DNA of 46,973 bases, from positions 1 to 46,973 of IMG/VR virus record IMGVR_UViG_3300020045_000984. One strand, given 5' to 3'. Below the pieces are notes generated by a model. It searched no databases. It saw only the letters and a program-made list of their open reading frames with translations, and had not been told where the DNA came from. The DNA is from a virus (lineage: Duplodnaviria; Caudoviricetes). Shown here in pieces: positions 1-46,973 of this stretch. The position numbers were made by a program, and so were the translations under genes. The number at the start of each line of letters is the position of its first letter. Position 1 is the stretch's first letter.

Positions 1-16
1 ACTAGATAGTTATAGC

Positions 17-678
17 AAGCAATTGCTTAACCTTTAATTCCGTTAGGGATACTGCTAAGCCTTAGGTGGCTTGGTTGGCAGGCTATGTAATTGGGTACTT
101 GTAAATCCCTTACCGCATATGATTAGGCGCTACCCTAATCGAAAGCTACCCGTTGGGAAACGTTAGCGGCAAATGCGACACTAAGGCAGGGACCGGAAAA
201 GCCGGTAATGCTAAGGCAGGGAACAAATTAAGCTAGGCGCGTTTCCCCGATGAATAGGGGATTACCTGCTAGCCTAGGCCTAACAAGCCTATGTTAGTGA
301 ACGGGAGCGAGCTAGCTAATGACAATCTTATAGTGATTAGTCCCTGCCAAGGGATTAGATAATGATACATAACAGATACGTGATAATGCGGGTTGCGATA
401 GGCCTTAGGGTTTCTATCTTGTCCGGTTTTTGCTGCTATCTGTTAGCTTTATCTAATAGTTAGGCAGGGCGTTAGTGCGATGCGATTAGGGTGTGGCTGA
501 TTGACCACGCCGAATGCCCGCTAATGCCGCAAGGCTAGTGTGTCGAAGGGGATTGTCATATAAATCTAACCGATATGGGCGGGCATTATGTGTCCGCCCT
601 ATTCGCGTTAACAGTTAGTGCATTGCCTTTGTGCCTTAATTGATACCGCGATTGGTATTGATTAACGGGTGACTAACT
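17..678 (+). ncRNA. Candidate large structured RNA or 5' leader
   Basis: No ORF of 60 aa or more. Nested stems include 52-58/75-81, 121-127/134-140, 185-193/340-348, 233-238/272-277, 280-285/292-297, 354-362/449-457, 370-378/437-445, 468-477/519-528, 490-496/505-511, 577-585/591-599, 613-619/672-678 and 636-647/654-665. Imperfect positions are mostly G-U on the + strand. Confidence 0.55.
181..222 (+). repeat. 12-bp direct repeat CTAAGGCAGGGA (181-192, 211-222)
   Basis: Exact match read from the sequence; the copies flank a small ACCGG/CCGGT hairpin. Confidence 0.85.
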
Positions 679-1281
679 ATGTCTACATTCTCAAACCTTG
701 CATCTACTGCGCGCAGCGCCTTGCTTGTCGTCAATGACGGCGTTCAATCCTTTAGTGTCGATAAAGTTACGGATGTTACGTTGTCCATTGGCAATCGTGG
801 CCGTGCCTTGGATGCTGATATTCATGCTGCCGCTTATGCCTGCCTGCACTTTGCGATGCCCAAAGGCGTTAGCGCCTCAGGAGCGGGCAATTGTGAGCCT
901 GCGCGTTTCCTTGTTGCGTCAATGTCGAGGGGCCTGCGCCAGAAGTCCCTAGTGGACTGGTTTGCGGCGCATAGCAATATCCGCCTGCGTCAAGACAAGA
1001 AGACTGGGGCATGGGCCTGCGGCCTTGCCAAGAAAGACGCGGCGACATTCGTGGAAGCCGATGAATTGATGGCACTTGCTGCTAAGGCGTGGGGAATGCC
1101 GTTCTTCACTCCCGAAGAAAAGACAAGTGGCGCTAAGGCGTTCGACCTAGGCGCGGCGATGGCTGCGTTGCTGGCCCGTGCTGCCAAGGAGCTTGGCGAG
1201 AATGATCCAAAGGTGACGTTCCTTGCCGATTGGGCCAAGGACAATGCGCCTGCGCCGGTAAAGGCGAAGAAAGCCGCTTAA
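679..1281 (+). CDS. Early hypothetical protein
   Basis: 200-aa ORF, first gene after the leader, possible SD GGGTGA, Ala/Lys-rich C-terminus. Confidence 0.8.
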   Translation: MSTFSNLASTARSALLVVNDGVQSFSVDKVTDVTLSIGNRGRALDADIHAAAYACLHFAMPKGVSASGAGNCEPARFLVASMSRGLRQKSLVDWFAAHSNIRLRQDKKTGAWACGLAKKDAATFVEADELMALAAKAWGMPFFTPEEKTSGAKAFDLGAAMAALLARAAKELGENDPKVTFLADWAKDNAPAPVKAKKAA

Positions 1282-1295
1282 TCCATCCAATTGTG

Positions 1296-1327
1296 GCGCG
1301 CTTGTACTCTACGGGGTGCAGGCGCGC
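1296..1327 (+). promoter_or_regulatory. Intergenic 14-bp RNA hairpin with cUACGg tetraloop (processing or termination signal)
   Basis: GCGCGCTTGTACTC-TACG-GGGTGCAGGCGCGC, 3 G-U pairs, followed by TTT. Confidence 0.65.
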
Positions 1328-1349
1328 TTTCCATACGTGAGTGACAATA

Positions 1350-4637: not shown

Positions 4638-4642
4638 TTAAC

Positions 4643-4679
4643 TAGGGTTGGGCGGGCAACTAGGCCCGCCTGTACTCTA
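4643..4679 (+). promoter_or_regulatory. Intergenic hairpin with internal loop (RNase III-site-like)
   Basis: TAGGGT/ACTCTA outer stem plus GGGCGGGC/GCCCGCCT inner stem. Confidence 0.5.
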
Positions 4680-6645: not shown

Positions 6646-7475
6646 TAAATCCCGCCGAGTGGTTAGAGCAGGCTAAGGCCCTCCCGCTTGGCGGGAAATC
6701 CCAGATCGCACACGGTTGCGGGACTGGCCGTAAGCTACTGATCGAGAACAAAGAAACAGGATGGGCCTGCTGGTGCTACCGCTGTAGCCTAGCGGGCTTT
6801 GTCCCTAAGCCCAAGCCAAGTCTGTCCGAGCGCATTAGCGCCCTTCGCAAGAAAGAGGCGGCAGCAGAAGTGTTCACTCGCACTCTGCGACCTCCCATGC
6901 CCGCGACATGGCTGGTTGACGATTGGCCTGAGCAGGCGCGTGTTTGGCTTTACAAGGCTGGCATGGACAAGGATTGGATACAAGAGATAGGCTTCTACTG
7001 GTGCTCCCCAATGGCGCGGGTTGTAATGCCTATCTTTAATGACGAGGGCAAGATGATCTTCTGGCAGGCACGGGGCTTTGACCCTGAGCTACCCAAGTAT
7101 CTATCCCCGCCGATCCCCACGGGCGGCAAGCCCTTGTACCGCGCGCATCCTGTACGTCCTGACCCTGAGCGGGACGAGCGGACCCTGTGCCTCACAGAAG
7201 ACATTCTGAGCGCCAACAAGGTGGGTCAGTGCGTAACAGGCGGGTCTATACTCGGAACATCCCTCACCGCGCTCCACGAGGCTGAGATTGTCAAGTTCAA
7301 CCCATCTAGGGTACTGGTCTGGCTGGACCCTGACGCCGCTGGCGTGTCCGGTCGGCGCAAGATCGTTCCACAACTCCGGGCTTTAGGCATCGACGCCAAG
7401 GCCGTCCGGGCCGATCTGGACCCGAAATGCTACCCCCTTGGTATAATCCGGCAACGGCTGCTTTGCATTCCGTGA
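6642..7475 (+). CDS. DNA primase
   Basis: N-terminal Zn-binding residues (HGC...CYRC); TOPRIM motifs LTED and WLDPD. Confidence 0.9.
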   Translation: MINPAEWLEQAKALPLGGKSQIAHGCGTGRKLLIENKETGWACWCYRCSLAGFVPKPKPSLSERISALRKKEAAAEVFTRTLRPPMPATWLVDDWPEQARVWLYKAGMDKDWIQEIGFYWCSPMARVVMPIFNDEGKMIFWQARGFDPELPKYLSPPIPTGGKPLYRAHPVRPDPERDERTLCLTEDILSANKVGQCVTGGSILGTSLTALHEAEIVKFNPSRVLVWLDPDAAGVSGRRKIVPQLRALGIDAKAVRADLDPKCYPLGIIRQRLLCIP

Positions 7476-7485
7476 CCCTCTTGAC
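7468..7485 (+). promoter_or_regulatory. Putative phage RNAP promoter, copy 1 (TTCCGTGACCCTCTTGAC)
   Basis: 18-nt motif TTYCGTRRCCCTCTTGAC found at three gene boundaries. Confidence 0.7.
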
Positions 7486-17106: not shown

Positions 17107-19578
17107 ATGCTTACACAGGCAGAACTCGAAGCAGAAATGGTAGACGGCGGGCGTGAGCGCATGACCCGCATGATGGATCGCAACGAGGCTGCCGGTGGGG
17201 CAGTAAATAACCCTTACGCCTCGGCAATCCTCAAACGCTTTGTAATGCCTATGGCCGCTCTGGTAGAGGCAGACATTGTAACTCCCAAGCCCGGACGTAA
17301 TCAGGCACACGTAACCCTGCTGCGCGGTATGGACCCGCAGGCAGTCGCGTACCTCACGGTTCGGCATACTCTTAATCACCTGATGGAAAGCTCAGAAGCC
17401 ACGGCACGTAGTCTTACCCTTGAGGTAGGCAAGGCGGCTTACAGCGAACTGCTGCTAACCCTGTTTGAAATGGAAGACCCAGCACTGTTCTATGTGCTGA
17501 CACAAGACCTTGACCGGCGCATGTCTAGGGACGAGCGTTACCGTATGGTTGTGTTCAAGATGCAGGCCAAGAAGCGCGGCATTGAGTTCCCAGAATGGGG
17601 CATTGCTGGCACTACTCAGGTAGGCGGCTACTTGCTGAACGTCCTAGAGGGCCTCGGCATGATCGAGACTTACCGCGTCACCCGCCCCGGCTCTAACAAC
17701 AAGCCTAAGACAACCCTGCAAATCCGGCTCACTGAGGAAGTTGCCGGTATGATCGGGCAGCTCAAGGACTTCGTGCTGGAAGCCGCGCCCCTGTTCCTCC
17801 CATGCGTTGAGAAGCCACGAGACTGGACAAGCGTTAGCGACGGCGGCTGGCACACGCTGGCTATGCGTCGGACCCAGCCATTTGCAGTCAAGGCCAACGC
17901 CTGCTGGTCAGAGCTTCACGAGTACGACATGTCTACCCCGCTGGCGGCAATCAATATGCTACAGAACGTAAGCTGGCAGATCAATCGTCGCATCTTCGCT
18001 ATCGTCAAGGATGTTTCGCGTTACTTCGATACCGAGGAAATCGTTAGCCTTAGCGAACCCCCGCGCCCGCCACGGCCTTACTGGCTTAGCGACGACATGA
18101 AGCGGGAGAACATGAGCAAGGACGAGCAAGCCGAGTTCTCTAGCTGGCGCAGGGAAATGGCCCAGTGGTTCTCGGACCAGAAAATCCGCAACACCCGCTA
18201 TGGCCGCTACAACAACGCGCTGCGGGTTGCCGAGAAGTTCCTTACGTATAACGAGTTGCACTTTGTTTACTTCGCAGACTTCCGGGGCCGCTTGTACGCC
18301 CAGACTACAGGAGTTAGCCCACAAGGGTCTGACCTGCAGAAGGCGCTGCTGCGCTTCTCTGAGGGCAAGGCGTTGTCAAGCCCTGAGGCTGTCAAGTGGT
18401 TCAAGATTAACGGGGCCAACAAGTACGGCTTCGATAAGGCGAGCCTTGACGACCGCGCGCTGTGGATTGACGAGCGCGATGATATTATCCGTCGCTGCGC
18501 CTCTGATCCAATTACGTACCGGGATGACTGGATTAACGCTGATTGCCCGCTGCAGTACCTAGCTTGGTGCTTGGAATACAAGGCTTGGCGGGACAGCCCC
18601 GACACGTTCGTATCTCACCTGCCAGTAGGTATGGATGGGAGCTGCAACGGCCTACAGAACTTCTCTGCCATGCTGCGGGACGAGGTAGGCGGGAAGGCAA
18701 CCAACCTCACCCCGGCCCTCAAGCCGTCTGACATATACCAGATCACCGCAGACGTTACAGCCCAGAAGCTGCGCGACTGCCACGATCTGCCTATTCCAGA
18801 TGACGACGAGACTGAGGACACGGCCAAGAAGATCAAGTACGCAACTAGCTTCAACCACTTCCGCCGCCTGTGGATAGACCACGGCATTACTCGTAACCTA
18901 GTAAAGCGGTCAGTTATGACTAAGCCTTACGGGTCTACGCGCTTCTCGTGTGCTGACTTCATCGTGTCGGACTACCTCAAGCAGGGTAAGGCCCCTGAGT
19001 TTGCCAAGGAGGAATACCACCCCGCTGCCCGTATGCTTTCCCGCTTTGTCTGGGAAGCTATTGGCGAAGTAGTCGTAAAGGCTGACGAGGCTATGGACTG
19101 GCTGCAACGTTCTGCCACTAACATCCTTAAGGACAACGACCACATTAGCTGGGTAACGCCTACAGGCTTCCCAGTGATCCAACGCTACGCCAAAGAGGAG
19201 CGCACCCGCATCCGTACCCGCCTGTGCGGGAATGCTCTGCTGCATATCAAGCGGGAGACTGAGGAAGCGGACGGCAATCATCACCGGAACGGGATCGCCC
19301 CGAACATGCTGCATAGTCTGGACGCCTCTCACATGGCCCTCGTGGCCCTCGCTGGAGGCCGGGAAGGCATGGCCCTTGCTATGATCCATGATGACTTCGG
19401 GACACACGCAGCGGACGCCCCACGGTTCTACACGATCATTCGTGAAACCTTCGTCGCCATGTACGAGAACAACGACCCGCTTGGAGACTTCGCGGACAAG
19501 TACGGCCTGTCGGGGGTTCCCCAGCCCGGTCGCCTTGACCTTCGTCAAGTCTTGAACAGCCCGTATTTCTTTTCGTAA
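17107..19578 (+). CDS. Single-subunit DNA-directed RNA polymerase (T7-like)
   Basis: DFRGRLY, DGSCNGLQ, KRSVMTKPYG and IHDDF motifs. Confidence 0.98.
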   Translation: MLTQAELEAEMVDGGRERMTRMMDRNEAAGGAVNNPYASAILKRFVMPMAALVEADIVTPKPGRNQAHVTLLRGMDPQAVAYLTVRHTLNHLMESSEATARSLTLEVGKAAYSELLLTLFEMEDPALFYVLTQDLDRRMSRDERYRMVVFKMQAKKRGIEFPEWGIAGTTQVGGYLLNVLEGLGMIETYRVTRPGSNNKPKTTLQIRLTEEVAGMIGQLKDFVLEAAPLFLPCVEKPRDWTSVSDGGWHTLAMRRTQPFAVKANACWSELHEYDMSTPLAAINMLQNVSWQINRRIFAIVKDVSRYFDTEEIVSLSEPPRPPRPYWLSDDMKRENMSKDEQAEFSSWRREMAQWFSDQKIRNTRYGRYNNALRVAEKFLTYNELHFVYFADFRGRLYAQTTGVSPQGSDLQKALLRFSEGKALSSPEAVKWFKINGANKYGFDKASLDDRALWIDERDDIIRRCASDPITYRDDWINADCPLQYLAWCLEYKAWRDSPDTFVSHLPVGMDGSCNGLQNFSAMLRDEVGGKATNLTPALKPSDIYQITADVTAQKLRDCHDLPIPDDDETEDTAKKIKYATSFNHFRRLWIDHGITRNLVKRSVMTKPYGSTRFSCADFIVSDYLKQGKAPEFAKEEYHPAARMLSRFVWEAIGEVVVKADEAMDWLQRSATNILKDNDHISWVTPTGFPVIQRYAKEERTRIRTRLCGNALLHIKRETEEADGNHHRNGIAPNMLHSLDASHMALVALAGGREGMALAMIHDDFGTHAADAPRFYTIIRETFVAMYENNDPLGDFADKYGLSGVPQPGRLDLRQVLNSPYFFS

Positions 19579-19588
19579 CCCTCTTGAC
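19571..19588 (+). promoter_or_regulatory. Putative phage RNAP promoter, copy 2 (TTTCGTAACCCTCTTGAC)
   Basis: Same motif, overlapping the RNAP stop at the start of the structural region. Confidence 0.72.
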
Positions 19589-23850: not shown

Positions 23851-23862
23851 GTTCTCGTCCCG

Positions 23863-23898
23863 GCCCCCAGTATTCTTCGGAGTGCTGGGGGCTTTTTT
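23863..23898 (+). terminator. Intrinsic terminator (T-phi-like)
   Basis: GCCCCCAGTATTC-TTCG-GAGTGCTGGGGGC then TTTTTT directly after MCP. Confidence 0.92.
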
Positions 23899-34289: not shown

Positions 34290-34307
34290 TTCCGTAGCCC
34301 TCTTGAC
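34290..34307 (+). promoter_or_regulatory. Putative phage RNAP promoter, copy 3 (TTCCGTAGCCCTCTTGAC)
   Basis: Same motif upstream of the tail fibre gene. Confidence 0.72.
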
Positions 34308-38859: not shown

Positions 38860-39104
38860 TGGGTATCGTATCAACTATGGCACCTTCGCGGGCACCCTAC
38901 GCGGTAACGCCACACGCCACCAACCCCCTGCCGCGCGTTCCTAAGGCCCTCTATATTGGGGGCGCTGGGAACTTGACGGTACGAGGGGCAGGCAGTGATG
39001 CAGACGTTACCTTCGTTGGCTTGCCTGCTGGTTGTGTTCTTGACGTGGCTGTGAGCCATGTACGGGCAACCAGTACGGCCACTAACATCGTAGCCCTAGC
39101 ATGA
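38859..39104 (+). CDS. Head-spike base protein (RcGTA Rcc01079-like)
   Basis: AVTP...KALYIGGAGNLTV...VTFVGLPAG..L.V..SHVRATSTATNIVAL pattern. Confidence 0.7.
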   Translation: MGIVSTMAPSRAPYAVTPHATNPLPRVPKALYIGGAGNLTVRGAGSDADVTFVGLPAGCVLDVAVSHVRATSTATNIVALA

Positions 39105-40672
39105 TGCCGGGGTTTGGGTTCGGTAGCTGGCGCGCGCCTCGCGCGGGGGGTGGTGCACCGCCTGTGCCCATCTCTGCACCTGCCACATTCGCAGCGGCGG
39201 GCGATGTTATTCCGATGACCATTTCGCGCCAAGCAGGCGGGGCTATCGTTACCGACTATGACCCCGATGCGGTTCGACCAACGCCTACGGCTACGTATTA
39301 CGTTTCGACAAGCGGCAATATCAACAATAACGGCACAAGCGAGGCCACGCCGGTTAATTCGATCACTTGCGCTGTGGCAATTGCAAAGGCGGCGGGCGGG
39401 ACGGCCTGCATCAAAATCGCCGCTGGAAAATACAAGCGCGGCAACGGCGTGTTTACGCGATCCGGCCAGCCAACCGCAAACGGTGCGTACCGCGCGTGTC
39501 TGAATGTAGGTACGGCGCTAGATCAAGACATTCTTCTTGAACCGCTTGTTCCCGGAACCCGTTGGATTAGCATGATTGAAGTGCAGGAAGGCGGTATCGT
39601 ATTCTCCGCTACCGCTGATCCGAATATCAAGGTTGGAACATGGTCTGGCGCTCTGCCGGGTGTCTTGCTGGTCGATTGGAACAACCTTGACGCTGACGGC
39701 ATCCCGCGCCTTATCACGCCACTGCTGACGACGCCTGCAAGTTCCGCCGCGCCGTGGCCGGAAATTAATGCGCTTTGGACGGCTTACAGTACGGTCAAGG
39801 ACAAGACTACCGACGCTTCAAGCTACGGTATGGGCGCGTCGTGGCTCGATACGGCAAATAGCAAAATCTATGTCCGCACGTTCGACAACCGCTTGCCGGT
39901 AATGAGCGCAGACGTTGATATTCTGGCCAACGATGCGACATTGCGCGGGGCCGAAACCGCTATCACGGCATCACGCACCATGTGGATGCGTGGCGGTATG
40001 TTGATGGGCGGCAAGAACGGCGCTTTCCACGCCTATTCGCCCAGCACGTCTAATGTCCTGACGCTCTATGCCGATGATATGGTGTTCTGGGGTGGCTACG
40101 GTTATGGGGCCATCACCACGGTCAAGCTCGACGCTTCGACTACGCCGTTCGGCGGCAAGTTCATCATGAACAACTGCAAGGGCTACTACAGCCTGTCCGA
40201 TGGCTTTAATTGGCACGGGTCGGGCACTGGTGCGATTAACTCGCCGTTTGTCATCGAGATTGGCAGCAAGTCGAAGTGGTGCGGTTGGAATGCCACGGGC
40301 ACAAACAACGGCACAACCAGCCATGAGACGGTGCGCAAGATTTGCATCAACGGCGAATACCTGAACATCCAAGACCGCGCGATCCACGACATTCAGGCCA
40401 GCCTTAACTGGTATCTCGGATGCACGGCAAGCACCCGCCGCATTGCCGATGCGACTGCGAACAGCCGTGCCGTTGTCGCTCAAGCATCTGCGCAGGTGGG
40501 AACGACCACTATCTGGCTGGACAGCTTCACGCCGGTCAACGGTGCGTTCGGTGCGCCACAAGCGGAATACGACGCCTACAGTTCGGGCGGCATCCTATTC
40601 GCTACGAACATGACTGTGCCCGGATATTCGCCTGCCGGTGGCGGCAGTGCCTTCGCAGCCTACACGCCTTGA
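39101..40672 (+). CDS. Putative head-spike fibre with beta-helix (pectin-lyase-like) region
   Basis: N-terminal MMPGFGFG directly after the spike-base gene; TYYVSTSGN.NNNG and DGFNWH...NNGTTSHE beta-helix-like motifs. Confidence 0.65.
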   Translation: MMPGFGFGSWRAPRAGGGAPPVPISAPATFAAAGDVIPMTISRQAGGAIVTDYDPDAVRPTPTATYYVSTSGNINNNGTSEATPVNSITCAVAIAKAAGGTACIKIAAGKYKRGNGVFTRSGQPTANGAYRACLNVGTALDQDILLEPLVPGTRWISMIEVQEGGIVFSATADPNIKVGTWSGALPGVLLVDWNNLDADGIPRLITPLLTTPASSAAPWPEINALWTAYSTVKDKTTDASSYGMGASWLDTANSKIYVRTFDNRLPVMSADVDILANDATLRGAETAITASRTMWMRGGMLMGGKNGAFHAYSPSTSNVLTLYADDMVFWGGYGYGAITTVKLDASTTPFGGKFIMNNCKGYYSLSDGFNWHGSGTGAINSPFVIEIGSKSKWCGWNATGTNNGTTSHETVRKICINGEYLNIQDRAIHDIQASLNWYLGCTASTRRIADATANSRAVVAQASAQVGTTTIWLDSFTPVNGAFGAPQAEYDAYSSGGILFATNMTVPGYSPAGGGSAFAAYTP

Positions 40673-40682
40673 GGATGCTGTA

Positions 40683-43600
40683 ATGCCCAAATTCCGGTAC
40701 TCTCTCGATACAGGCTTGTCACACGTCTATCTTGACGTGCCATTGCCCTACACCATTGCCTGCGGGCCATCCCAAACGGTTATCGTGGAGCCGGTTGGGC
40801 CACTGCTGACACTGGCGGCAGTCGCGGACCTGATGCGCGTTGCCGAAGTCACGCAAATGACCGGCGCGCGTACTGCGGTGGTTCCGCAAACATACTTCGA
40901 TGCACAGACAGCGGATGCGTTCAACACCGATAATCACCCCGTCGGTGATCCGCTCATTCCAACGTGTTCAATTTACACGCACAAGGCAATTCGTTCGGGC
41001 AACTGGTCTGATCCTACGATGTGGGATGTTGGCACGATACCCCATGCTGCACCGGATGGCACAGCACTGGTTTGCTCTGGTGAATACGATATTGTTTACG
41101 ATGTGTTTTCCGATGTGCGCATCAAAGATATTCACATCAACGGGCGCGGCTCGTTCAAGGTTCTGCGCACCATGCGCACCCGCCTTTGGGTGGACACGAT
41201 GCTTGTCGATGGTACACTGATTATCGGTGAACCCGGCGCACCGATTATTGACAGCGGCGTTGTGGCCGGCGGCAAACGGCAACCGCAATGTGAAATGGTG
41301 TTCTGGCAATCCGAGGCACCACTGAAAACGGCACGGCTTGGCCTTGTCACATCGGGGCCGGTGCGCATTCAAGGCGCTGCCAAAACGTCACGCCTTTATG
41401 CCACGGACACCATTGCAGCCGGTGCGACGACGATCACGTTGGTTGACGTGCCTTCCGGTTGGCAGATTGGCGACGAAATCCTTATCCCGTCCACGGAATA
41501 CGGCGGTACATCAACCAGTGACCCGCAATACCTTGGTCCGCTGACATACAACCACTTGGCCGTCACCACTGCCAACCAGTTTATGCTGAATGTGCAGGAT
41601 GAAGTTCGCACGATCACGGACATTTCTGGCACGGTAGTCACGCTCAACAGCGCATTGACCTATGCGCACAACCGCTACACCCGCACCATGCCACGCGGGC
41701 AGGTGGTGGACCTTAAGCCAATTGTGGCGATGTTGACGCATTCGATCCGCTTCCGCACGGCTGACAGCAACGATACTGCAATCTGGTCGGGCGCTAACTT
41801 AGCTGTCCGTCAGAAGCGCGCGCATATGATGTTCATGCTGCATGACGACATCGAAATTCGCTATGCCGAAAGCAAGAACATGGGTCGCACGGACACAGAC
41901 CCTTCGCTGGCTGATCCGGGCGGCGCTATTCGCTATGCCAGCGTCGGCACATCACAACCCATAACTGACGTAAACAACGTCCGAGGTCGCTACCCTTGGC
42001 ACATCCACCGCACTGGCGCTTACTTTGGCCGGAAGCAAGTCGTGCTTAAATCCGTCTCATCATGGGCACCGCCTGCCGAATATCCGATACCCGGCTGGGC
42101 AATTACCCATCACGATAGCCGTGCAGCGATTGAGGATTGCGTGGTCTACAACGTCCGGGGCGCTGGCATTGTCTCCGAACTAGGCAACGAAACTGGCCAA
42201 TGGATCAACAACACGGTCGCATGGTGTCGCGGTGATGGCCATCTGTTTTACTGGGCAGAGCGCGCCGAGGAATGGACAAACCACAACGGGCATATGGGCG
42301 CGGCTTATGAGAACCAAGCGCGCCAAATCCTTCAGCAAGGCAACACTGCTCATTCGGCAAGAGTTGGCTGGATGGTTATGCAGCAAGTGACCAATGCGCT
42401 CTCTCGCGTCCCTGATGGGGATAGCCTGCGGTATCGTGACCCGCTTGCGCAAGGTGGTGGGACGAACGTAGGTGGCGACTACAGCCTAGACAATGACACC
42501 TACGGCATCGAACAAGCGCAGTTCCCCGACTTCTTCGATAACCACGCCTTTGGTTGCGGTAATGCGTTCTGGCGGGCGCATGTCGTCAACATAGACCGGC
42601 GCGACAAAACGCCGTTTATTTTCAAGCGCTTCCACTCAATCAACTGCGGTGTCGCCTACCATTTGATAAACTACACCTATGTGTATTATTTCTATGAATG
42701 CTTATGGATTGGGCACAGCCAAGTTAGCGCATCGGGGGCTAATCTGGGGCCGGTTTCATGGGAGCATGGATTTGTGAACATGCGTCTTGAGCGCATGGCA
42801 TCTGGCTTCCTTGATACAAACCACGGCATCGGTTACCAGACATATTGGATTGATATAGAGTTTGGTTCAGGCGCATGGGGAGTGACAAATCCCTTCAATG
42901 GCGCGAATGTGCTGGATTTTGGCGTCGATCCCACAACTAGGCCAACCTACGGCTTGATGGGGCCGTGGACGGTTACAGGAGCCACAACAGCCAAGCCTCG
43001 CACATGGGCTAACTTGACGGCGGTAGACCTTCCGCAACCTTACCCATTGGCACCGTTCGGGCCTGACCAGACATTCCGCGATGCGAACCCATGCCCTGCT
43101 GTTGGGCAACTTCCTTATGTGGTGGTCGATCCAACTTCAGACCTGACGATGGGGCCAACGGGTGCTTTTGCCATCACAATTAAAGCAAACATTGTCGATA
43201 GTGTTGGCTACCGTCGTTTTGGGGATTGGCAATCATCCGAAACAAATCACGCTAGCATGACACCTAAGCTGTCCGTGTCGCCAGAGTGGGCAACGGGCAC
43301 AAGTTTAGCGCGGCGGAACGGCGTGTTTAATGATGGCGGCACATGGAAAATGCGGATGTGGTTTAACGACATAGACCGCTATTCCGGCGATCATTTTAAT
43401 TATTCAATCGATGTGACATTGACCGGCTTCGACAGCGGTTTCTTGGCTGCAAACACGGTTGATCCTATGGCCACCAAGCCAGACGTTCCGTTGATGCCAG
43501 AGGCCATTCCAGAAACGGCAATCGGCGCGCATGAAACGCCTTTGGTTGTGACCGGCGCATCGCACAACAACATCGAAAACGAACTTCTATCTATCCCGTT

Positions 43601-44402
43601 GAAAGCAAACACTGGCCTTGTGCGGTGGGCAGTTACAGGCGGCGCTGATGCGGCTGATTTTGAAGTGGCGTTCGTCTCAGGCCAATGGGTGCTGCGCTGG
43701 GCGTCGAACGGTACGAAGGACTATGAAGCGCCTGACGATACGGGGGCGAACAATGTCTATGACGTTCAGGTCACTTGTACCTCGTTCGCTGGCGTTGCTT
43801 CCACGCCGTTCAGCATAGCGGTCACTGTCACTGATCAAGTGGAGAGCGTCGTATCCTTCTCGGATAATTACACATCACCATCCACCGGGTTCATTGATAA
43901 TCGGCTTGGCTACGTTCGCACGGCGGGCACTGCCAACAAGCTATCTGTTTCAGGGGGTCAAGTTAGAGACGAGGGTGTTACCGGAACGACCGTTTACAGG
44001 CTTCCGAATATCTCTCTGATCGACAACTTCCAAGTTCGTGGCGTTTTCCAGAATGCCAGCGGGATGGCTATCGTTCTGGCAAGCCCATCGGGGACGACAA
44101 CATTCACCGGGCGCAGGCTGACATTGGAAAAAATCAGCGATTCTCGTATCGTGGTGCGCTACATCAACACTGCTGGCACACAGACAAGTTGGCCGTTCCC
44201 AGCAACGTCCAGCTTAGTAAAACTGGCAGTCGTGGGGGGTTCCTTTGTTGTGACGTACAATGGAGTGGCGCAGACTTCGACGAACGCTACAGCGCAGACA
44301 TTGGCGGACGGTCTGCCAAGCGATGCACGGTTCCATATGGTTGGTAGCGGAACCTTCGCACAGTCGAATGTCTTTGACGATCTGTTCCTCGGCCCTGCAT
44401 AA
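40683..44402 (+). CDS. Large G8-domain / CEMIP-TMEM2-like beta-helix protein with cadherin-like domain; putative depolymerase or adhesin
   Basis: AIRSGNWSDPTMW...DGTLIIG (G8-like), GWQIGDEILIPST, GRYPWHIH, DYEAPDDTGANNVYDVQV; GAGGA SD supports start at 40683. Confidence 0.75.
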   Translation: MPKFRYSLDTGLSHVYLDVPLPYTIACGPSQTVIVEPVGPLLTLAAVADLMRVAEVTQMTGARTAVVPQTYFDAQTADAFNTDNHPVGDPLIPTCSIYTHKAIRSGNWSDPTMWDVGTIPHAAPDGTALVCSGEYDIVYDVFSDVRIKDIHINGRGSFKVLRTMRTRLWVDTMLVDGTLIIGEPGAPIIDSGVVAGGKRQPQCEMVFWQSEAPLKTARLGLVTSGPVRIQGAAKTSRLYATDTIAAGATTITLVDVPSGWQIGDEILIPSTEYGGTSTSDPQYLGPLTYNHLAVTTANQFMLNVQDEVRTITDISGTVVTLNSALTYAHNRYTRTMPRGQVVDLKPIVAMLTHSIRFRTADSNDTAIWSGANLAVRQKRAHMMFMLHDDIEIRYAESKNMGRTDTDPSLADPGGAIRYASVGTSQPITDVNNVRGRYPWHIHRTGAYFGRKQVVLKSVSSWAPPAEYPIPGWAITHHDSRAAIEDCVVYNVRGAGIVSELGNETGQWINNTVAWCRGDGHLFYWAERAEEWTNHNGHMGAAYENQARQILQQGNTAHSARVGWMVMQQVTNALSRVPDGDSLRYRDPLAQGGGTNVGGDYSLDNDTYGIEQAQFPDFFDNHAFGCGNAFWRAHVVNIDRRDKTPFIFKRFHSINCGVAYHLINYTYVYYFYECLWIGHSQVSASGANLGPVSWEHGFVNMRLERMASGFLDTNHGIGYQTYWIDIEFGSGAWGVTNPFNGANVLDFGVDPTTRPTYGLMGPWTVTGATTAKPRTWANLTAVDLPQPYPLAPFGPDQTFRDANPCPAVGQLPYVVVDPTSDLTMGPTGAFAITIKANIVDSVGYRRFGDWQSSETNHASMTPKLSVSPEWATGTSLARRNGVFNDGGTWKMRMWFNDIDRYSGDHFNYSIDVTLTGFDSGFLAANTVDPMATKPDVPLMPEAIPETAIGAHETPLVVTGASHNNIENELLSIPLKANTGLVRWAVTGGADAADFEVAFVSGQWVLRWASNGTKDYEAPDDTGANNVYDVQVTCTSFAGVASTPFSIAVTVTDQVESVVSFSDNYTSPSTGFIDNRLGYVRTAGTANKLSVSGGQVRDEGVTGTTVYRLPNISLIDNFQVRGVFQNASGMAIVLASPSGTTTFTGRRLTLEKISDSRIVVRYINTAGTQTSWPFPATSSLVKLAVVGGSFVVTYNGVAQTSTNATAQTLADGLPSDARFHMVGSGTFAQSNVFDDLFLGPA

Positions 44403-44515
44403 TGCGCTGGAACACAATATCTCACCTCGCCATGTGGGGCCTGATGGCTCTCATGGCGTGGGATATGTGGGTTATGCCGCATCCTGCTGTGGTGGTGGGG
44501 ATGTGTGGGGGTTAG
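44402..44515 (+). CDS. 37-aa Met/Trp-rich hydrophobic peptide
   Basis: MRWNTISHLAMWGLMALMAWDMWVMPHPAVVVGMCGG*; TAATG overlap with the upstream stop. Confidence 0.4.
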   Translation: MRWNTISHLAMWGLMALMAWDMWVMPHPAVVVGMCGG

Positions 44516-44558
44516 GGCGGCGCGACTGGGAACCCCCTGTCCTAACGCCGCCTTTGTT
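44515..44558 (+). terminator. Possible terminator between convergent units
   Basis: GGGCGGCG/CGCCGCCT stem followed by TTGTT; the loop is long. Confidence 0.35.
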
Positions 44559-44662
44559 GCTGCGGGCCAGTGGGATTCGAACCCACGGATGCCGAAGAGG
44601 ACGCCTCTTCCTGCCCCTAGTCGCGAACTATGCCTTAAACCACTCAGCCATAGCGCCACAGC
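44559..44662 (-). tRNA. Aberrant type II tRNA-like RNA or pseudo-tRNA (Ser-like D arm), anticodon undetermined
   Basis: Minus strand: TGGCTGAGTGGTTTAAGGC D arm, GTGGG-TTCGAAT-CCCAC T arm, long variable arm, shortened anticodon arm, bulged and extended acceptor stem, no CCA. Confidence 0.7.
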
Positions 44663-44668
44663 GGGATT

Positions 44669-44696
44669 GTTTTAACACATCCCCGCAACGTGTCAA
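44669..44696 (-). promoter_or_regulatory. Host sigma70-type promoter for the tRNA-like RNA
   Basis: TTGACA-16 nt-TAAAAC; predicted start near 44662. Confidence 0.6.
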
Positions 44697-44787
44697 AGGA
44701 TCGGGGGTTTTGGTGACTTGACCAATCGGGGTTTTGTCTTATGCTGCCATATCTCCAAAGATGGCTGGCGATGTGACCCGCCAGCCA

Positions 44788-44985
44788 TCAATTAAGCGCG
44801 GTTTGAACGTGTTCAATCACGCGCAAAGTGAGATACTTTTCGCCGTTGCTATCTTCGCCATTGATGAACGACAAATCATGCGGGCCGATCTGCGTTTGGT
44901 TTGTGAGCATCACCTCTCCGCCCATGCCCTTCACCAATATAGCGATGAGTTCGCTTAGGAATGCGGGGTCTTGCTCATCAAGCAT
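44788..44985 (-). CDS. Small hypothetical protein
   Basis: AAAGGA SD before MLDEQDP... Confidence 0.6.
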   Translation of the reverse strand: MLDEQDPAFLSELIAILVKGMGGEVMLTNQTQIGPHDLSFINGEDSNGEKYLTLRVIEHVQTALN

Positions 44986-45014
44986 GGTCCATCCTTTTTG
45001 GTGATCGGCGCTTG

Positions 45015-45404
45015 TTAACTGGTGGGCTTCTTTAGCGCGGTGATCTCCTCTGCGCACTTCCCACAAGCGAACCGCTCACCGAATGACGACAATGGCTGGC
45101 CGGTCGCATATTGTGGCGATGCGAACACCTTCTGCTGATCGATGCAAGCCTTCGCAGCCGCCTCAATCGCAGCGTTCCATCCCCGCACATAGCCTACATC
45201 TTCGCCAGCGTGGAGAGCGTGAGATGGGGCTGTGCCCGCCTTCATGGCGGATATGGCGGCGGTGGCTGCCAACAAAAGGTTCACGTCACCGTCGATTGTA
45301 ATGGCGTCTAACTGGTCGCTGCTGCCAATCCATGCGTCGGATTCCTTGTCCTGCACAAGCGCATCATAAATGGCTTTTGCAACCCGTTCAACGTCCTGCA
45401 TCAT
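45015..45404 (-). CDS. Hypothetical protein
   Basis: AAAGGA SD, ATGA overlap; VERVAKAI and GWNAAIEAAAK patterns of accessory phage proteins. Confidence 0.7.
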   Translation of the reverse strand: MMQDVERVAKAIYDALVQDKESDAWIGSSDQLDAITIDGDVNLLLAATAAISAMKAGTAPSHALHAGEDVGYVRGWNAAIEAAAKACIDQQKVFASPQYATGQPLSSFGERFACGKCAEEITALKKPTS

Positions 45405-45607
45405 GCGTCCTTTCTGGTGAGGGCTTTTTGCAGGTTAACGGCCCGTTTCATAGCCTGCAGCTTGGCCTCTGCTTTATCAGCACGGACCTTGGTGGCTTCG
45501 TGTGCGGCGCGTAGGCTGGCTATCTTTTGAGCAGCTTCACGGCATAGGTCCGTAAGAAGCGTGTCGTCTTCTCTGGCGTTTAGAAGAGCCTCTTCTAAAT
45601 CAGTCAT
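45401..45607 (-). CDS. Small coiled-coil hypothetical protein
   Basis: MTDLEEALL...; overlapping junctions on both sides. Confidence 0.6.
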   Translation of the reverse strand: MTDLEEALLNAREDDTLLTDLCREAAQKIASLRAAHEATKVRADKAEAKLQAMKRAVNLQKALTRKDA

Positions 45608-45920
45608 GGTCGGGGCTTTCTGGTTCGAGGGCTTGGCGGGCGTAGTCAGCCGCAACCGACATGACCATCCCGCCTTTTGCAATCCGCTTCAACGCCTCCC
45701 GAAGCCTAGCAATCTCCGCATCCTTCTCAACCAGCATCTCGGCAAGCACTTGCCGCACCAGCAAGGCGCGGTTGCTGTCTTCCATCGCCCGTGTGCGGTG
45801 GCGGGCGAGGGCTTTAATAATGCGCCCACGTTCATCACGCCGAACTTCAATGTAATCGTCGCTCTCTGGATACGGTTGCGCGCGGATAAATTCTGCGTCT
45901 GTAACTTCGGTTTCGGTCAT
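45600..45920 (-). CDS. Hypothetical protein
   Basis: AAAGGA SD, MTETEV...EIARLREALKRIA. Confidence 0.65.
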   Translation of the reverse strand: MTETEVTDAEFIRAQPYPESDDYIEVRRDERGRIIKALARHRTRAMEDSNRALLVRQVLAEMLVEKDAEIARLREALKRIAKGGMVMSVAADYARQALEPESPDHD

Positions 45921-46105
45921 GGCTGTTTGTCCTTTAGTAAATGTTCCCACCAAGAGAGATTGTCGGCACCGTAGCAGCCGCACATGTGACCATCGCAACA
46001 CATGCGCTCTCGGCCTTCCTTGTCCCAAACGTCCGCCTTCCATTCGCGGAAGTGAAAGCGGTAAAGCCAAAGCATTCGCAGTTTGATCCACAGGTCTTCG
46101 GTCAT
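45917..46105 (-). CDS. Small Cys/Trp-rich hypothetical protein
   Basis: CCDGHMCGC motif; ATGA overlaps. Confidence 0.6.
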   Translation of the reverse strand: MTEDLWIKLRMLWLYRFHFREWKADVWDKEGRERMCCDGHMCGCYGADNLSWWEHLLKDKQP

Positions 46106-46233
46106 GGCTTAGTCTTCCAACATTTGAGGCACATCGAACCTAAGTTCTCGCCGGTTTGGATGTTGACGTACGGTGACTGCTTCCAGTCGTGACGGCAAAA
46201 GAGTTGCCATATCAGCTTCTTGATCCGTCTCAT
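46102..46233 (-). CDS. Small zinc-ribbon-like protein
   Basis: LFCRHDW...CLKCWK; GGAG SD. Confidence 0.6.
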   Translation of the reverse strand: MRRIKKLIWQLFCRHDWKQSPYVNIQTGENLGSMCLKCWKTKP

Positions 46234-46259
46234 GGCTTCATCTCCGTGGTTTCGGTCAT
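46230..46259 (-). pseudogene. 9-codon mini-ORF MTETTEMKP, probable deletion scar or translational linker
   Basis: AGGA SD, ATGA overlaps at both ends, same first 12 nt as the gene starting at 45920. Confidence 0.4.
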
Positions 46260-46678
46260 GGCTGGGTGTCCTGTGTGGTGGGGGTGGCAAGGGCATCGGC
46301 AAGCACTTGTTGCAAAGCCGCGCGCTCGGTAAGTTCAGAGGGTGTCAACGGTTGGCACCACTCGCAACGGCGGGTGCAAAGGCAGCTATCGCCGTCCCAA
46401 GTGTCGCACTGCCAATCCCAGCCACAACCATAGGTGAAGCCTTCGCCGCCGCAATTGGCGCAGTCGTTTGCGTCGTCGTCGAAGTCGATTTCATCCGCGA
46501 GGCACGACGCGCAAAGGTCGCCATGCTTCAACCTGACCGGATTATCGCAGTGTGAGCATTTGGCCCAACCGCCTGACCCTCCGCAATCTCCACAACCGAC
46601 TGTCAGACCATGCGCACCGCAATCCTGCCGGTGCAATTGCCCTGTCCCTGCGCACGTCTCGCATGTCCTAGCTGTCAT
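46256..46678 (-). CDS. Cys-rich protein with DnaJ-type CxxCxGxG repeats
   Basis: CETCAGTG, CGDCGGSG and CANCGGEG plus further CxxC pairs. Confidence 0.7.
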   Translation of the reverse strand: MTARTCETCAGTGQLHRQDCGAHGLTVGCGDCGGSGGWAKCSHCDNPVRLKHGDLCASCLADEIDFDDDANDCANCGGEGFTYGCGWDWQCDTWDGDSCLCTRRCEWCQPLTPSELTERAALQQVLADALATPTTQDTQP

Positions 46679-46856
46679 GGTCTGCAATCCGTTCGGGAAA
46701 CTTGAAGGCAGTGCCTTGGATTTTGCTGTCAATGATCCGGCGCGTTCTGATTTTTCGGTCAGCCGCGCCTTCCTGATAGCCGTCACGCAAGCCGCATAGA
46801 TATGCGAGCGCTATGGCGACCAGAAACATGATGCCGATTGCGATGAAGCCGTCCAT
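46668..46856 (-). CDS. Small membrane-anchored protein
   Basis: GAGGTGA SD; N-terminal TM FIAIGIMFLVAIALAYLCG followed by a basic segment. Confidence 0.65.
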   Translation of the reverse strand: MDGFIAIGIMFLVAIALAYLCGLRDGYQEGAADRKIRTRRIIDSKIQGTAFKFPERIADHDS

Positions 46857-46973
46857 ATCACTCACCTCGCGGGGGTGTTGGGAGAGCGTCAAAGGCGCGG
46901 TATGCTTCGGCGGCAATCTTTGTCGGGCAGTTGAAAACCGGCGGGTTTGCTGAACCGCAATCACCGGAACAAT

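Follow-up and report, generated by a model that had tools for sequence, protein, structure and literature searches.

The window analysed here is the whole 46,973-nt stretch of DNA that forms the virus record IMGVR_UViG_3300020045_000984. Its genes are arranged as in a phiKMV-type autographivirus, with small early genes followed by those for primase, helicase, DNA polymerase, ligase, a single-subunit RNA polymerase and virion proteins. The RNA polymerase is 57% identical to that of Percy-group phages and 54-58% identical to those of the Caulobacter phages KSC, DCM, Percy, Lullwater and Cd1, of Brevundimonas phages and of Sphingomonas phage Scott. Judged by gene order and polymerase sequence, the phage is phiKMV-type and related to Caulobacter phage Percy, and since the relatives of its polymerase come from Caulobacter, Brevundimonas and Sphingomonas phages, an alphaproteobacterial host is likely. 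The first gene, gp1, is missing from G001, the nearest relative when helicase and polymerase are compared. The features discussed below are the following.

3-8 (+): TAGATA, probable -10 hexamer of an early promoter of the host sigma70 type, by its match to the promoters of relatives
15-678 (+): untranslated structured region, likely the leader of the early transcript, 664 nt, without an ORF of more than 37 codons
121-141 (+): switch-like segment that can form either a hairpin, 121-127/134-140, or a 10-bp helix, 132-141/483-492
181-350 (+): multi-hairpin domain, z -4.19, in which GGCAGGG (at 185 or its repeat at 215) pairs with 340-348
319-327 (+): 5' arm, a perfect 9-bp complement to 551-559, both arms lying outside local stems
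354-457 (+): two stacked perfect 9-bp AU-rich stems, 354-362/449-457 and 370-378/437-445
468-528 (+): nested hairpin whose base resembles a TAGTGC...GCTA hairpin and which competes with a long-range rod
566-610 (+): terminal stem, about 17 bp long and interrupted by an internal loop, probability 0.87-1.0, ending 69 nt before gp1
633-670 (+): 12-bp hairpin adjoining the gp1 ribosome-binding site GGGTG at 667-671
679-1281 (+): gp1 (phrog_1448), conserved first early gene
1295-1328 (+): 15-bp intergenic hairpin 3' of gp1 (1201-1350, z -3.4), likely a second processing or stability stem
4643-4679 (+): intergenic stem with an arm, GGGCGGGCA, in common with 577-585, likely another processing stem
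17107-19578: phage RNA polymerase gene

The protein gp1 is weakly homologous to the first gene products of Percy, KSC, Lullwater and BC. Percy gp1 matches 212 records, and gp1 is the first or a near-first early gene in many phiKMV-type phages; its genome position equals that of T7 Ocr. As a candidate RNA-binding partner, gp1 matched neither Pfam, nor the Atlas families, nor PDB folds; its predicted model has a pLDDT of 73. A tblastn search with gp1 returned no matches, a search of viral contigs found it on none singly and at one locus by alignment, and a search of metagenome contigs found one locus, on that same contig. Contigs with gp1 are absent from the sole metatranscriptome run (X20), which carries no evidential weight.

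Several observations were made elsewhere in the record. Three exact + strand copies of TTYCGTRRCCCTCTTGAC lie at 7468-7485, 19571-19588 and 34290-34307 (0.15 expected with up to 3 mismatches), ahead of the helicase gene, directly 3' of the RNA polymerase gene and ahead of the tail fibre gene; by these positions, the repeat is likely the promoter of the phage polymerase. A strong hairpin with a U-tract, resembling the T-phi terminator, follows the major capsid gene at 23862-23898 (+). A 1254-aa ORF at 40638-44402 (+) has no PHROG or Pfam match, and a second tail-fibre or hydrolase gene lies upstream of it at 39101. The right end, 44400-46973, looks foreign: it holds a tRNA-like remnant on the minus strand (T-arm 44570-44587) that ARAGORN does not call, and beyond it small minus-strand ORFs with weak phage matches. 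Downstream of the terminase, neither an endolysin nor a spanin nor a terminal repeat was detected, and the record may thus be chimeric or mis-joined at this end. ARAGORN found no tRNA genes in the whole record.

The left-end leader and its probable promoter

The stretch ahead of gp1 is non-coding, with 19-21 stops per + frame and a longest stop-free run of 37 codons. In L006, L031, L032, Scott (L035) and Cd1, the word TAGATA or TAGATG sits 16-17 nt after a TTG-type -35 box, and the segment 674-700 of Cd1, which carries one copy of this hexamer, is annotated as a promoter. The window starts AC-TAGATA, and a -35 box would fall just outside it. With this hexamer at its very start, the record probably begins within the promoter, which would put the transcription start at about 15-17, a position that coincides with the left edge drawn in the initial annotation. 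The very early transcription proposed there is supported. Contigs of the sequencing runs X1 and X3 extend past position 1.

A promoter scan called no promoter in 1-678, leaving the -10 box at 3-8 uncalled as well, and no intrinsic terminator was found in the same interval. The word TTGACC at 501, which also occurs in a promoter of L006, is weak and has a spacer of only 15 nt, and a boxA-like word at 29-39 is likewise weak.

In Percy, Lullwater and KSC, the left end is an annotated terminal repeat of 190-201 nt, and these phages and BC have no annotated gene before 1320-1551. Our reading of the sequences of Percy, Lullwater and KSC places a repeat-rich stretch next, followed by TTG-type promoters 560-690 nt before gp1. 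The terminal repeat of the relatives lies 400-700 nt upstream of the promoter, and their untranslated leaders ahead of the first gene measure 0.4-0.9 kb. The two ends of the window have no repeat of at least 15 nt in common, which left no way to link the region to such a repeat. Within the first 400 bases of L002-L006 and L011-L015, the word ATCT(A/G)T occurs directly after the terminal repeat and again 55-190 nt on; it resembles the concatemer-junction pause signal of T7. The 370/445 stem of the window is an inverted pair of an ATCTGT-type word.

Folding and strain variation

All nine stems described in the initial annotation were recovered at their coordinates. Their imperfect positions had been called mostly G-U, and six of six non-Watson-Crick positions are indeed G-T on the + strand. 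The fold z-scores on the two strands, each against 20 shuffles, were -4.17 (+) and -3.13 (-). For 15-678, z was -3.38 against dinucleotide-kept shuffles (1 of 50 as good), -3.17 against trinucleotide-kept shuffles, which control for richness in TAG and CTA (0 of 50), and -2.12 against tetranucleotide-kept shuffles (1 of 50); the minus strand gave -2.39 (1 of 30). Six perfect Watson-Crick stems of at least 9 bp are present, compared with 0.8, 1.2 and 1.8 expected from 300 shuffles each that keep 2-, 3- and 4-mers (p 0.01 or less). One of 21 control windows, each 664 nt long and taken from other parts of the genome, fell below z -3. The fold signal of the leader is real but not extreme. Together, the G-U positions, the shuffle z-scores and the excess of perfect stems support the earlier proposal of structure at the RNA level on the + strand.

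The nine stems do not form one agreed fold, and several are mutually exclusive. In the global ensemble, only 577/599 (pair probability 1.0) and 636/665 (0.88) dominate, while 185/348, 45/110 and 114/177 have pair probabilities of 0.04 or less, and a competing long-range rod (132-141/483-492 and 77-83/509-518) reaches about 0.75, displacing most of the local stems. When the pair span is limited to 180 nt, six of the nine stems exceed 0.85; the two 3' hairpins alone persist in both models. The segment 121-141 accordingly has two forms, the local hairpin at 0.99 in the span-limited model and the long-range helix at 0.75 in the global one, and the stacked 354-457 stems have probabilities of 0.93-0.98 in the former and 0.37-0.39 in the latter. 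Folded alone, only the sub-domains 181-350 (z -4.2) and 561-678 (z -5.5) beat their shuffles; 15-180 (-0.65), 351-465 (-0.95) and 466-560 (-0.2) were no better than theirs.

In the 181-350 domain, GGCAGGG belongs to a direct repeat family (D1), and the interior of the domain differs between strains. The complementary segments 319-327 and 551-559 make a candidate pseudoknot, unproven, that would cross the 185/348 stem. Scans of the window for T-loops and GNRA loops returned merely two weak candidates of each. In the predicted fold, 77% of the C residues are paired (a figure that stands without a shuffle control), and the longest unpaired run is 16 nt.

Strain variation was read from Logan contigs of near relatives, taken from 4 of 24 listed runs. 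Pooled divergence was 3.1% in the leader versus 9.2% in gp1, a comparison in which separate contigs may be different strains and gp1 may evolve fast. On one contig of X1, 26 of 621 leader positions were changed versus 14 of 76 in gp1 (p 2e-5); the corresponding counts were 3 of 238 versus 10 of 193 in X9 (p 0.02) and 8 of 339 versus 9 of 159 in X3 (p 0.07). Upstream of 312, X3 carries a different sequence, and five X1 changes fall at 274-302.

Among the differences listed (40 of 171, with the X1 changes in 1-57 outside the list), none of the 26 X1 changes lies in the four arms of the 354-457 stems. These 26 changes break 5 pairs of the global model versus 8.8 expected (p 0.03); for the local model the numbers are 5 versus 8.0 (p 0.09) and for the nine stems 1 versus 3.1 (p 0.16), neither of them significant. 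One two-sided change is seen, at 83/509. The X1 changes favour neither the global nor the local fold. In the local model, 11 changes preserve a pair, and every one of them creates or replaces a G-U pair, consistent with an RNA on the + strand.

The terminal stem and the leaders of relatives

Both the window and 14 of 16 relatives carry a stem that starts with CTA and whose end lies 0-69 nt upstream of the first start codon; the loci L033, L034, L037, L039 and L041 are outside this count, and the automatic search missed the stems of LUZ19 and T7. In the window and these 14 relatives, 15-19 of the first 20 arm positions are paired, with a bias towards pairing that comes from having picked the pairs by folding. 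Up to four pair types occur per position across relatives, and the loops range from a few to more than 200 nt. MAFFT misaligned the terminal stems, and no covariance model was therefore built for them. In ERS (L011:1228-1470), an annotated 80-codon ORF lies within the loop of the terminal stem, which indicates that the stem can bracket cargo genes.

The stem at 852-901 of T7 follows the same plan: 8 of 10 positions of its 5' arm are identical to those of the window stem, and its 3' arm also begins TATTC. We take this T7 stem to be the RNase III site R0.3, and its cut position is likewise assumed. The T7 GenBank feature tables do not contain R0.3. In T3, R0.3 is described between A3 and gene 0.3 (PMC3276506), in agreement with the position of the T7 stem. 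The stem 566-610 is predicted to be an RNase III processing site of the R0.3 type. Its upper part is GC-rich, and GC pairs have been reported to block RNase III (PMC1540722). A descriptor of the stem selects 5 of 350 CTAR sites on the + strand of the window, two of them in the leader and one intergenic at 4642. It selects 0 of 67 sites in T7 and misses the T7 stem itself, and thus is not validated as a detector of RNase III sites.

Transcript ends are available for the Phikmvvirus LUZ19, where ONT-cappable-seq transcripts from the promoters at 950, 1029, 1182 and 1284 end at 1704 and hold no complete gene (PMC10914365). The ends at 1704 and 2852 both lie inside predicted long stems and not after U-tracts, and 1704 falls inside the annotated gp0.1 (1616-1744). 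The accessible text of that study labels them termination sites and makes no mention of RNase III (PMC10914365); in our own reading, ends inside stems may be processing ends. LUZ19 and the window phage have the same genome plan, and in LUZ19 left-end host promoters give rise to transcripts 420-754 nt long whose ends fall within a long predicted stem ahead of gp1. LUZ19 differs in having five promoters and has no significant sequence in common with the window. The ncRNA candidates of its authors are all shorter than 250 nt, and the region is not described as a structured RNA in the accessible parts of the paper (PMC10914365).

Upstream of the terminal stem, the leaders are clade-specific. The Percy leader matches those of ERS, DCM, BL199, BL198 and KSC at 70-87%, and in five Percy-group sequences, themselves closely akin, two-sided changes occur at 31 of 143 predicted pairs. 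A covariance model of the first 90 nt of the Percy leader, searched against 17 loci, matched Quill (E 0.0034) and weakly Lullwater (E 0.12), in both cases at the predicted start site, thereby reaching no further than Lullwatervirus; it gave no match to the window leader at E 5 or better. The leaders of the Percy group and of Lullwatervirus (L002:815-1100, L004:628-930, L011, L012, L013, L003:913-1230 and L014:921-1220) appear as a covarying RNA family that is absent from Rfam. These phages are cultured. Within the Percy group, a tetraloop is swapped from TACG to GCAA and a 7-nt T-loop-like loop is invariant. Modules are often inserted or exchanged: KSC has an insertion of about 130 nt in its leader, as X3 has its replaced segment. 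Several relatives have more than one promoter within the leader region.

The window has 29 8-mers in common with L006 (8.8 expected, 0 of 300 shuffles as many) and 18 with L032 (7.3 expected), in neither case collinear, and 7 of 13 leaders show no excess of common 8-mers at p <0.1. The TAGTGC...GCTA hairpin comes before the terminal stem in Percy, DCM, BL198, L006 and L031, and GTTAGTGCG of the 468-528 hairpin is common to Percy. The word CACCTAC(C/T)GCAAA occurs 40-50 nt before the terminal stem at L031:1311 and L032:1342, in L035 and in L036 (minus strand), and a similar word is found at 107-119 of the window. Leader z-scores in seven phages ranged from -0.7 to -4.8 (10 shuffles), with -1.0 in Percy, -0.7 in DCM and -1.7 in BC. 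Searched with blastn, 1-700 gave four chance matches among 50,697 phage records and the L006 leader none, and the MAFFT alignment of the window with the L006 leader was not interpretable. A hairpin-pattern search returned 53 viral loci; none carried gp1 or matched over a longer stretch of DNA, and all were dropped. Only the 3' stem is general across relatives.

Possible roles of the leader

The initial annotation assigned the region to no known RNA family, and a whole-window Rfam search likewise returned no match at gathering score; the best E in 1-1400 was 3, and 10 related loci gave one chance match. It also raised the large phage RNAs GOLLD and ROOL. These RNAs often lie near tRNA islands and keep a covarying architecture (PMC12286853). 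The leader is like them in its size of about 600-800 nt, its phage origin, its many helices and a function unknown in both; it differs in being colinear with the first mRNA, in lacking a terminator and in its clade-specific modules. A stand-alone RNA of this kind is not supported by the features compared, given that neither an intrinsic terminator nor tRNA genes are present, that the leader is colinear with gp1 and that the relatives have in common only the 3' processing-type stem and clade-specific modules; a processed 3' end at 566-610 is predicted. Identity with GOLLD, ROOL or OLE was rejected, with no covariance model match, no tRNA neighbours and no single architecture across genera.

Among the four roles suggested earlier (decoy, antiterminator, scaffold and translational leader), the last, as the leader of an early transcript, fits best. 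The anatomy is that of the T7/T3 early leader (A1-A3 to R0.3, before gene 0.3), enlarged and more densely folded: a probable left-end host promoter, an untranslated leader, a stem bearing an internal loop immediately ahead of gene one, and more intergenic stems in the early region. The T7 leader has 427 nt, two more promoters and a boxA-like word, whereas the window leader has 664 nt and no called internal promoter; 44% of residues are unpaired in T7 versus 35% here. The two have one 8-mer in common and no sequence relation beyond the base of the stem. The phage polymerase gene lies 17 kb downstream in the window phage, compared with 3 kb in T7.

We propose that the region is a folded 5' leader maintained by selection, likely shielding ribosome-free RNA from Rho and single-strand RNases, and that RNase III likely removes it near 602; we give this reading a probability of about 58%. 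Host RNA polymerase would start at about 15 at the left end and would have to cross about 17 kb to the phage polymerase gene at 17107. Rho acts on untranslated RNA at C-rich sites (PMC6391919). As the first 660 nt would be free of ribosomes, dense pairing would keep Rho and single-strand RNases from finding a landing site. Cleavage by RNase III near 602, in the 566-610 stem, would release a leader RNA of about 590 nt, and the cleaved gp1 message would keep the 633-670 hairpin, the predicted structure of its processed 5' end, as protection. Selection would act on foldedness and a few modules, not on one fixed architecture. Both the promoter start and the RNase III cleavage in the window phage are what we infer from these comparisons. 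Evasion of Rho alone does not explain a leader conserved two to four times better than gp1. Nor does shielding explain the invariant loops of the Percy group, and it does not fully explain the crossing 9-bp complement 319-327/551-559.

These points bear on a different possibility, that the released RNA of about 590 nt is a stable tertiary-folded ncRNA acting in trans within the opening minutes of an infection, for example as a decoy that binds host defence or RNA-binding proteins, with RNase III as its maturation enzyme. The conservation of the leader above gp1, the perfect crossing complement, and the invariant loops, GNRA hairpins and covarying stems of the Percy-group leaders would all suit such an RNA, as would the Percy 5' module at the predicted start of Quill and, weakly, of Lullwater. 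Discrete left-end RNAs of 420-754 nt exist in LUZ19 (PMC10914365), and a 162-nt contig at 127-279 occurs in the sole metatranscriptome run, where it attests presence only and could be DNA. However, no architecture is common across genera, the Percy 5' model has no match in the window leader, and the words common to the closest relative, L006, are not collinear. Many relatives carry several promoters within the region, whose transcripts would differ at the 5' end, and three of the five sub-domains do not beat their shuffles. We regard this reading as unlikely. Stated more broadly, as alphaproteobacterial phiKMV-type phages making first an RNA of about 600 nt that RNase III releases and that acts alone as a decoy aimed at host defences or as an RNA that renders host polymerase processive, the idea is slightly less improbable and still unlikely. 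If true, it would reveal an overlooked class of clade-specific ornate RNAs, also in the culturable Caulobacter phages Percy, KSC, Lullwater and Cd1.

A part of the leader might instead act in cis. The put RNA of HK022 and the EAR RNA are processive antiterminator RNAs, and put binds host RNA polymerase. The leader resembles them as a structured RNA that immediately follows a probable early promoter and precedes a long operon; it is far longer and has no Rfam match. A put-like element that binds host RNA polymerase and makes it processive over the 17-kb early and middle region would suit this position ahead of a very long host-transcribed unit, and a CACCTACCGCAAA-type motif stands before the terminal stem in four relatives, with a similar word at 107-119 of the window. 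The small number of promoters in phiKMV-like phages has been taken to suggest long-range processivity, although this was said of phage-specific promoters (PMC10914365). The motif is absent from 12 of 16 relatives and placed differently in the window, and besides the missing Rfam match there is only the weak boxA-like word at 29-39. We consider this reading improbable.

Least probable is an origin of the stems as a side effect of left-end DNA rich in palindromes (TAG/CTA words, pause or packaging signals), without any RNA role: TTAG, TAGT and GATTAG are enriched 8-70 times, tetranucleotide-kept shuffles lower z to -2.1, the minus strand folds too (-2.4 to -3.3) and in L006 better than the plus strand (-7.2 vs -4.8), the 370/445 stem pairs the ATCTGT word found after the terminal repeat of relatives, and Lullwater upstream DNA also reaches z -4.1, but the six imperfect stem positions and the 11 pair-keeping X1 changes of the local model all involve G-U on the + strand, the excess of perfect stems survives tetranucleotide shuffling (p 0.01), two-sided changes occur in relatives, and no folding is seen in the DNA upstream in Percy, KSC and L006.

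The literature searched contains no account of a structured leader at the left end of Autographiviridae genomes, although subscription papers and bioRxiv supplements may hold one. Large catalogues of candidate phage RNAs may also include such a leader. The accessible parts of the paper on the Percy cluster contain no passage on non-coding DNA or promoters (PMC11053796).

The left end of phiKMV-type phages has so far been annotated only as repeats and promoters. Our results indicate that the final 0.4-0.9 kb of it is under selection as a folded RNA and carries a conserved processing-type stem. If the leader merely protects the early message, it would offer an explanation, open to test, for the passage of host polymerase across 17 kb to the phage polymerase gene, and it would caution against deleting the region in phage engineering. 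If the released RNA has a job of its own, it would rank as the first phage effector to act in an infection and would represent a new class of large RNA. Both readings are testable in the cultured Caulobacter phages, which have covarying homologous leaders.
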